Source of the DNA: Escherichia phage EF3-1
Sequence record: PQ571291
Direction: 5' to 3' (one strand)
Length of the DNA stretch: 50,066 nt
Shown: positions 26,946-27,475 of the stretch, piece after piece
Layout: the number at the start of each line of letters is the position of its first letter
How positions within the stretch are numbered: position 1 is the stretch's first letter
Translations under genes and position numbers: made by a program
Notes under the pieces: generated by a model
What the model saw: only the letters and a program-made list of their open reading frames with translations
Database searches by the model: none
Told to the model about the DNA's origin: nothing

Positions 26946-26960
26946 GCCTCCTTTCTTATT
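26931..26960. terminator. bidirectional terminator after lysis cassette
   Basis: AAAGGAGGC-TAA-GCCTCCTTT hairpin with spanin stop codon in loop; A-run upstream, T-rich downstream; convergent genes. Confidence 0.65.
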
Positions 26961-27067
26961 TGTACCTTTTCACATGAAGGAGCAACTCCCCATCCTGATC
27001 GCAAAGATTGTGTTCGCTGTCATTGTTGGCCCTCATTGAAGTAAGTAACAGGCTGAGTAACCCCTGT

Positions 27068-27475
27068 TCAAATTCTTCCTTTGTAAGCTGGAGTCTTGCG
27101 CACAATTCGACGTTCCGATCTATCAATGTTTCTACGTTCGCCAAACAAATCCTCATCACTCATCTCTCCAATATGCATCATTTCCCATGTATACCGATTG
27201 TTGTAACCATCAATACACATCAGCTTCATCATTACCGGGCGCTTAATCTTTCCCTTGCACCAGTAAACACCATCCTTGCGATCCAAGTAACCCTCAGTCA
27301 CACAACGAGCGCAAAACTCCTTAGATAGCGCGCTTGTAAATTCACGGTGAGTCAATCCAGCAGCCTTAGCAAATCGCTCACTTTCCTTGTGGGCGTATAT
27401 AAATTTCGCTATGTGCTGTCGGGTGTATTTGTCGTAACCTTCGCAGAACCTGAACAGATCTAAAAGAAGCAGCAT
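27068..27475 (-). CDS. hypothetical protein (135 aa; overlaps 26956-27159 ORF, possible frameshifted gene)
   Basis: ORF follows P-loop gene with 5-nt gap; a second frame continues to 26956 next to the terminator. Confidence 0.35.
   Translation of the reverse strand: MLLLLDLFRFCEGYDKYTRQHIAKFIYAHKESERFAKAAGLTHREFTSALSKEFCARCVTEGYLDRKDGVYWCKGKIKRPVMMKLMCIDGYNNRYTWEMMHIGEMSDEDLFGERRNIDRSERRIVRKTPAYKGRI

Follow-up and report, generated by a model that had tools for sequence, protein, structure and literature searches.

Next to an intrinsic terminator in the genome of Escherichia phage EF3-1, two minus-strand open reading frames, referred to here as ORF1 and ORF2, overlap out of frame, and the question raised by this locus is whether they represent one gene or two. 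The earlier note, made on the same 50,066-nt stretch of DNA that we analyzed (sequence record PQ571291; hereafter, the window), offered three explanations for the pattern i.e., a gene disrupted by a frameshift through sequencing error or pseudogene formation, a programmed frameshift, or two genuinely overlapping genes. The family-wide layout, the phase, the selection acting on each frame and the start codon all favor the last of these. We put at roughly 85% the probability that the locus consists of two independently initiated, same-strand, out-of-frame overlapping genes downstream of a DUF3987 helicase gene. The features on which the argument draws are as follows.

26541..26945, plus strand: convergent lysis gene (Rz-like/unimolecular spanin, according to the annotations of relatives), with its stop codon within the terminator stem
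26934..26954, both strands: intrinsic terminator, bidirectional, separating ORF2 from the convergent u-spanin gene, with an annotated homologue in T1
26956..27159, minus strand: ORF2 as the longest frame, 67 aa, GTG start, TAA stop at 26956-26958
26956..27156, minus strand: ORF2 from the conserved ATG, 66 aa plus stop, phrog_9539
27068..27475, minus strand: ORF1, 135 aa plus stop, ATG start, TGA stop, homologue of T1 gene 10 (ST10), phrog_2794
27068..27142, minus strand: ORF1 tail, residues 112-135 (GERRNIDRSERRIVRKTPAYKGRI) plus stop, basic, predicted to be disordered, entirely within ORF2
27143..27475, minus strand: conserved ORF1 core, residues 1-111, ending ...MSDEDLF, a predicted winged helix with three short C-terminal helices
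27154..27156, minus strand: ORF2 ATG, within the ORF1 codons GAT-GAG (Asp107-Glu108); the GTG at 27157-27159 is the mechanical first start
27160..27162, minus strand: TGA in the ORF2 frame, which shuts that frame immediately upstream of the ORF2 start, in an aTGAgcgATG arrangement common to most genera
27164..27169, minus strand: Shine-Dalgarno-like (SD-like) GGAGAG, with its GGAG core at 27166-27169 and 9 nt from the core to the ORF2 ATG
27480..29048, minus strand: DUF3987 DNA helicase gene, 522 aa (Pfam E = 3.4e-42, phrog_2373)

The window belongs to a Tunavirus (T1-like, Drexlerviridae) and, over the ORF1/ORF2 stretch, is 93-98% identical to its best-matching Escherichia and Shigella phages. 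In plus-strand order, the holin, endolysin and u-spanin genes are followed by the terminator and then by ORF2, ORF1 and the helicase gene on the minus strand, with a gap of only 4 nt between the helicase stop codon and the ORF1 ATG. The mechanical list of open reading frames starts the helicase at a TTG at 29111 (543 aa), whereas relatives use an ATG 21 codons downstream, at 29048 (MFNIKPK...). Recomputation of the coordinates and phase of ORF1 and ORF2 agreed with those given previously, including the one-nucleotide offset and the 92-nt overlap (27068-27159), and places ORF2 in the +1 phase of ORF1 (27475-27159 = 316 = 3x105+1). The terminator hairpin, AAAGGAGGC-TAA-GCCTCCTTT, has a 9-bp G+C-rich stem flanked by T runs on both strands. 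It was detected on the plus strand, whereas in the minus-strand RNA the fold has an energy of -16.3 kcal/mol (z = -3.6), with U7 next to it on the 3' side; in phage T1, a terminator is annotated at the homologous place and on the same strand. The stop codon of ORF2 lies 1 nt from this hairpin, confirming that ORF2 ends at the terminator. The ORF1 stop had been placed 110 bp before the terminator, a figure that is approximately right, although the measured distance is 113 nt.

By itself, an open frame of 67 codons such as ORF2 is not beyond chance (~3%, by a rough estimate), and we examined the locus in relatives. Searches by tblastn recovered 835 phage records with ORF1 and 686 with ORF2. A comparison set of 92 sequences was assembled, in which the window was joined by 11 annotated phage loci (L001-L011) and by 80 IMG/VR loci, the ORF1 alignment serving as the query for related loci. 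Both ORFs were present in 75 of the 92, drawn from many Drexlerviridae genera, and in every one of these 75 ORF2 occupied the +1 phase. Four further metagenome loci, carrying the most divergent ORF2 homologues (28-29% identity), displayed the same synteny and phase, with overlaps of 26 and 35 nt.

These observations bear directly on the suggestion that a single gene has been broken by a frameshift, whether as a pseudogene or through a sequencing or assembly error in this genome. All that speaks for it is the one-nucleotide offset between neighboring frames, classically a mark of such an event. Yet the identical arrangement recurs in independently sequenced genomes across the family, no indel separates the window from phages AV106 or Sfin-1 within either ORF, and an uninterrupted version was not found among the homologues searched. 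Taken with the codon-position-specific purifying selection seen in both frames and the strong constraint on the downstream one (see below), this leaves a broken gene with a negligible probability.

The conserved part of ORF1 finishes at ...(M/L)-S-D-(D/E)-E-L-F, residue 111, after which the protein continues for 1, 1, 6, 8, 14, 19, 20, 22, 24 or 43 residues depending on the lineage. The position of the ORF1 stop codon is thus not conserved, and the overlap ranges from 23 to 167 nt among lineages. In a further 15 loci, from Rogunavirus and similar phages, ORF1 occurs without ORF2; here it is 111 aa long, stops one codon past ELF (ELFx) and is followed directly by a terminator. Because of the variable tails and these 15 loci, the ORF1 core would be a complete protein by itself and ORF2 a separable unit. 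The comparison with relatives yielded separate genes with overlaps as short as 23-35 nt (L010, L087, L093 and L095) or ORF1 alone, which is in essence the outcome that the earlier note had named as refuting a frameshifted or recoded gene.

ORF2 was also intact in two genomes in which ORF1 is interrupted. In an IMG/VR locus (L024; IMGVR_UViG_2974611450), the region of ORF1 codon 58 has changed from TGT-GTG to TGA-AAA, creating a premature stop, and in Citrobacter phage BSwS KMM3 (L009; OP902292) ORF1 is frameshifted near codons 11-40. Either ORF1 is dispensable in those phages or the interruptions are sequencing errors.

Several differences in gene content were noted around the locus. Most close relatives, including Sfin-1, carry ~295 extra bp at the position corresponding to the window junction 26955-26956 (16 of the 20 matches listed), whereas the window, AV106 and S2_02 do not. 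The insert codes for a 71-aa hypothetical protein (Sfin-1 gp46; 1059-1274 of L001) and has its own upstream hairpin. Since its left boundary (TAGCACTTTTTGTTAAAA...CATCGAAA) is also found after the ORF1 stop in one of the loci with ORF1 alone (L029), there is a hint that it is a small mobile cassette shared among genera. Genes for HNH homing endonucleases are likewise inserted at differing points around the helicase-ORF1 junction depending on the genus i.e., between the helicase gene and ORF1 in the Klebsiella phage Cronopio, a Webervirus (175-717 of L008), and upstream of the helicase gene in T1 (ST8; 3586-4001 of L092); the window has none here.

We next consider how ORF2 could be initiated. 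Of the 75 loci with both ORFs, 74 (49 of the 50 distinct junctions listed) have a +1-frame ATG upstream of the end of the Phe codon of the ELF motif, at a distance of 14 or 11 nt. This ATG is formed from three ORF1 codon contexts, GAT-GAN, GAC-GAT-GAA and GAT-AAT-GAG. In the single exception (L084), it has become AGG, and a Val to Met change has generated a new ATG 11 codons downstream. Conversely, the ATG was missing from the canonical position in all 15 loci with ORF1 alone, because the Asp is written there as GAC; in one of them (L058), a +1-frame ATG does occur one codon upstream of that position, but it is unrelated. Of the arguments for independent initiation, this covariation of the ATG with ORF2 is the strongest.

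The SD-like element proved a less consistent guide. In Tunavirus, the duplex of GGAGAG with the anti-SD reaches -6.4 kcal/mol, near the 5th-10th percentile of all window ATGs. Elsewhere its strength extends up to -8.8 kcal/mol, falls to between -1.5 and -3 in several genera, and is about 0 (+0.7) in Webervirus. Moreover, the purine-rich codons of this region are also present for ORF1 coding reasons. We downgraded the SD element as evidence for independent initiation, given that it is not conserved in every genus. Its weakness or absence in several genera, and most clearly in Webervirus, counts against the two-gene reading, which leaves the initiation of ORF2 there unexplained.

The weak or absent SD is at the same time an argument for a variant of the two-gene reading, in which ORF2 does not rely on free 30S binding but is translationally coupled to ORF1, through unfolding of the mRNA by the ORF1 ribosomes or their re-initiation at the internal ATG, and the ORF1 tail is a neutral run-on. 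The overlaps of 23-35 nt in the most divergent members are typical of coupled genes and fit this variant as well. In the window, however, 89 nt lie between the ORF2 ATG and the ORF1 stop downstream, a distance beyond the reach of simple termination-reinitiation, and the intact ORF2 of the two genomes with an interrupted ORF1 also speaks against coupling. With the constraint on the tail described below, we regard this variant as improbable, if the most credible of the alternatives to independent initiation.

The two predicted proteins were then compared with known families and structures. ORF1 matched phrog_2794 with E = 2.2e-66, its residues 2-129 aligning to positions 1-128 of the 129-position profile, ORF2 matched phrog_9539 with E = 2.4e-31, its residues 5-67 aligning to positions 2-64 of a 64-position profile, and searches of Pfam and NCBIfam returned no family for either. 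The model of ORF1 has a mean pLDDT of 85 over the whole protein, with residues 1-110 confidently predicted (core block means of 81-98). It comprises an N-terminal helix, a winged helix (helices 19-28, 32-38 and 43-61, and a hairpin at 64-73) and three short C-terminal helices, such that the predicted core contains the three-helix bundle and beta-hairpin wing characteristic of that fold. The tail (residues 112-135), which includes TPAYK and is strongly basic by residue count, has a pLDDT of 43-59 and is predicted to be disordered.

Structurally, the ORF1 core resembles the winged-helix (WH) domains of MarR/ArsR regulators, of kleisins and cullins, and of the retron Ec86 effector (7v9x_C), to which it is 3-17% identical; it differs from them in its extra N-terminal helix and three C-terminal helices. 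No sequence similarity to winged-helix relatives was detectable in Pfam, NCBIfam or PDB searches, and the PDB sequence search gave only matches with E > 0.2, to eL29. WH domains also mediate protein-protein contacts, and the kleisin and cullin domains are among the structural matches of ORF1; for this reason, the function of ORF1 is not readable from its fold. ORF1 homologues across Drexlerviridae carry the product name 'YdbL' (e.g., tiwna gp60; 698-1093 of L003), while others are called hypothetical proteins. We found no Pfam or NCBIfam family match and no paper in the literature to support this name, which looks like an inherited, unsupported annotation.

ORF2 is predicted by AlphaFold2 to fold alone (pLDDT 90) into two helices and a beta-hairpin, and by residue count it is a small, acidic protein. 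A structure search with ORF2 gave no match outside its own family. Matches to WD40-repeat proteins in the PDB were rejected as spurious, in that they were sums of short matches between an EHNLxDxDGxLL hairpin and repeated blades, none of which was significant by itself. Tryptic peptides present in the ORF2 sequence are ICLANVETLIDR, NVELCAR and EEFEQGLLSLLLTSMR.

As a protein search with the single ORF2 sequence gave only four matches, an alignment of the locus-derived sequences was used to retrieve a set of 65 homologues from a collection of 5.8 billion proteins, all of which were 68 aa or shorter. The ORF1 homologues, 16 close ones and 20 representatives (from among 1.84 billion representative proteins), were all of 158 aa or fewer, and the tails of the longer ones were of the out-of-frame type, unlike ORF2. 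Among these 65 ORF2 and 36 ORF1 homologues or cluster representatives, there was no in-frame fusion of ORF1 with ORF2.

The absence of fusions is relevant to the other single-gene explanation, a programmed +1 ribosomal frameshift near codons 106-113. This would join the winged helix to ORF2 in a protein of ~170 aa, while ribosomes that do not shift would make the 135-aa protein. The +1 phase, constant in all 75 loci, is expected from a conserved frameshift too, and to that extent weighs against the two-gene reading. Also compatible with a shift are the near-exact coincidence between the end of conserved ORF1 (...ELF) and the beginning of conserved ORF2, the SD-like GGAGAG upstream, and the rare AGA and CGA codons downstream in the window. 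Nevertheless, the only stretch permissible over all lineages consists of the S-D-x-E-L-F-x codons (the whole overlap of L010 being GCGATGCAGAACTCTTTAAATGA), and this contains no conserved shift-prone motif and differs between lineages at ORF1 wobble positions. There is neither a CUU-UGA-type or stop-stimulated site nor a homopolymer run for transcriptional slippage; a stop codon follows the stretch only in L010 and L087 (AAA-TGA and CGA-TGA), where it is preceded by codons unable to re-pair in the +1 frame. Furthermore, a +1-frame start codon is conserved and covaries with ORF2, an in-frame fusion of the two parts was seen in no lineage, ORF2 persists intact where ORF1 is interrupted, and in the Rogunavirus-like phages ORF1 stands alone and ends exactly where the programmed shift would need to happen. 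A programmed frameshift, the second explanation proposed earlier, is thus very unlikely. Because the +1 phase never varies and conservation passes from ORF1 to ORF2 exactly at ...ELF, one may still conceive of a low-level programmed +1 frameshift of a new kind, using no known slippery motif, that joins the winged-helix protein to ORF2 in some molecules throughout the T1 family; we consider this equally unlikely. Better supported than such a new type of frameshift is the view that the ORF1 tails, of 1, 6, 8, 14, 20, 24 and 43 aa, arose as successive stop-loss extensions that overprint ORF2 and that selection now maintains in some clades.

To return to the two overlapping genes, the pattern of nucleotide variation was examined in each frame. 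When the window was aligned with Sfin-1 3' of the ORF1 stop and inspected by eye, ~12 of 17 codon differences were synonymous in the ORF2 frame. Site counts among 14 distinct close Tunavirus sequences gave a similar picture. In the part that is ORF1 only, read in the ORF1 frame, 10/106 first, 4/106 second and 33/106 third codon positions were variable, and in the part that is ORF2 only, read in the ORF2 frame, the corresponding values were 8/36, 2/36 and 29/37. By this codon-position pattern, each frame acts as coding sequence in the part it does not share. The same arrangement in all 75 loci, combined with purifying selection in each frame, disposes of the earlier proposal of a disrupted gene. 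Third positions in Tunavirus are far more variable in the ORF2-only segment (26956-27067; 29/37) than in the ORF1 core (27143-27475; 33/106), and this high variability may reflect recombination with divergent alleles beside the cassette insertion point.

Dual constraint was assessed by pooling six clades, considering only codons whose amino acid is invariant within a clade and splitting them by degeneracy; here the overlap denotes the overlap body, which starts 15 nt past the ORF2 ATG and ends with the stop of ORF1. In the ORF1 frame, synonymous variation was found at 88/222 four-fold and 62/285 two-fold codons of the ORF1-only part, compared with 1/50 and 0/63 in the overlap (pooled, 150/507 vs 1/113 codons). 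In the ORF2 frame, the values were 39/79 four-fold and 32/85 two-fold in the ORF2-only part, compared with 10/63 (p = 3.5e-5) and 5/57 (p = 8.5e-5), respectively, in the overlap (pooled, 71/164 vs 15/120). ORF2-silent sites are thus 2.5-4 times less variable inside the overlap than outside it. On the basis of these counts, ORF2 is strongly selected and is the dominant constraint in the overlap, which itself appears to bear an extra constraint.

The latter point concerns the ORF1 tail. Its divergence between genera in both length and sequence, like its predicted disorder, would be expected of a neutral run-on. The depletion of variation at ORF2-synonymous sites in the overlap is not, and neither is the retention, in the Tunavirus-like group, of the tail motif RN[VI]DRSERRI down to ~60% core identity. 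These two observations suggest that ribosomes do read the ORF1 tail and that it is not wholly neutral.

Putting these elements together, we propose that ORF1 encodes a 111-residue winged-helix protein with a lineage-specific tail, beginning 4 nt after the DUF3987 helicase gene. ORF2 would be translated independently from the ATG at 27156, inside the Asp-Glu codons of ORF1 and, in Tunavirus, downstream of GGAGAG, to yield a 66-residue acidic protein that probably folds autonomously, its gene ending at the terminator. Ribosomes on ORF1 would not shift, and would read 24 more codons across the first 30 codons of ORF2 to produce the basic, disordered tail. Independent initiation and separate protein products are what we infer from the comparative data. 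In the literature we found no proteomics, Ribo-seq or N-terminal data for Drexlerviridae, and nothing on T1 gene 10 or the small ORF. From the adjacency to the helicase gene and the winged-helix fold, a replication-associated role for both proteins would follow, and their position in the replication module beside the helicase suggests that they could serve an accessory function in replication or host takeover. As neighbors of the replicative helicase, both would merit attention in studies of how T1 replicates or takes over its host.

The overlapping pair is already known, in the sense that several GenBank/RefSeq records annotate both genes. Homologous pairs are annotated in Escherichia phage vB_EcoS_ESCO41 (gp28/gp29; NC_047820) and Klebsiella phage K50_evo15 (genes 49/48), and ORF2 is also annotated in Stevie_ev116, YP10S2 and CLB_P3; it is omitted from the T1 reference, RefSeq Sfin-1 and AV106. 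Gene callers usually miss ORF2, which, along with its absence from the T1 reference, could be held against the two-gene reading; its absence from records arises because gene callers drop it for overlapping ORF1. The significance of the locus lies mainly in annotation, in that a conserved gene of 63-68 aa (phrog_9539) is absent from the T1 reference and many relatives. It is an ordinary finding that does not challenge current understanding. Beyond annotation, the pair offers a clean, well-sampled small example of dual coding, with a start codon inside Asp-Glu codons, a shared stretch in which synonymous sites are frozen, and an ORF1 stop codon that has moved over 140 nt between genera.

With respect to known systems, the annotated Drexlerviridae pairs are like the window in their order of helicase, ORF1, ORF2, terminator and convergent spanin, in their +1 overlap and in their combination of phrog_2794 with phrog_9539. 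They differ in overlap length, which is 92 nt in the window, 56 nt in ESCO41 (as annotated) and 74 nt in K50_evo15. In T1 (L092; NC_005833), only gene 10 is annotated, and the 116 nt between it and the terminator (43989-44104 in record coordinates), the site of ORF2, are left unannotated. The window, for its part, lacks the 71-aa gene that most Tunavirus genomes have between ORF2 and the terminator.

Two features of the pair recall the +1 frameshifting of prfB (RF2), namely a downstream frame in the +1 phase and an SD-like element ahead of the overlap. In contrast to prfB, the pair lacks CUU-UGA and any other slippery or hungry-codon site that is conserved, ORF2 has its own conserved ATG, there are no in-frame relatives, and ORF1 occurs alone in a sister subfamily. 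Another likeness is to the phage same-strand, out-of-frame overlapping genes, a known class that arises from overprinting or stop-codon loss. As in overprinted phage genes, the window pair would specify two proteins in different frames, with reduced synonymous variation and with ORF2 more constrained than the ORF1 tail. Unlike in that class, the overlapped part of ORF1 is a short, variable, disordered C-terminal extension rather than a structured domain and, unlike the embedded genes of the class, ORF2 runs 110 nt past the overlap.
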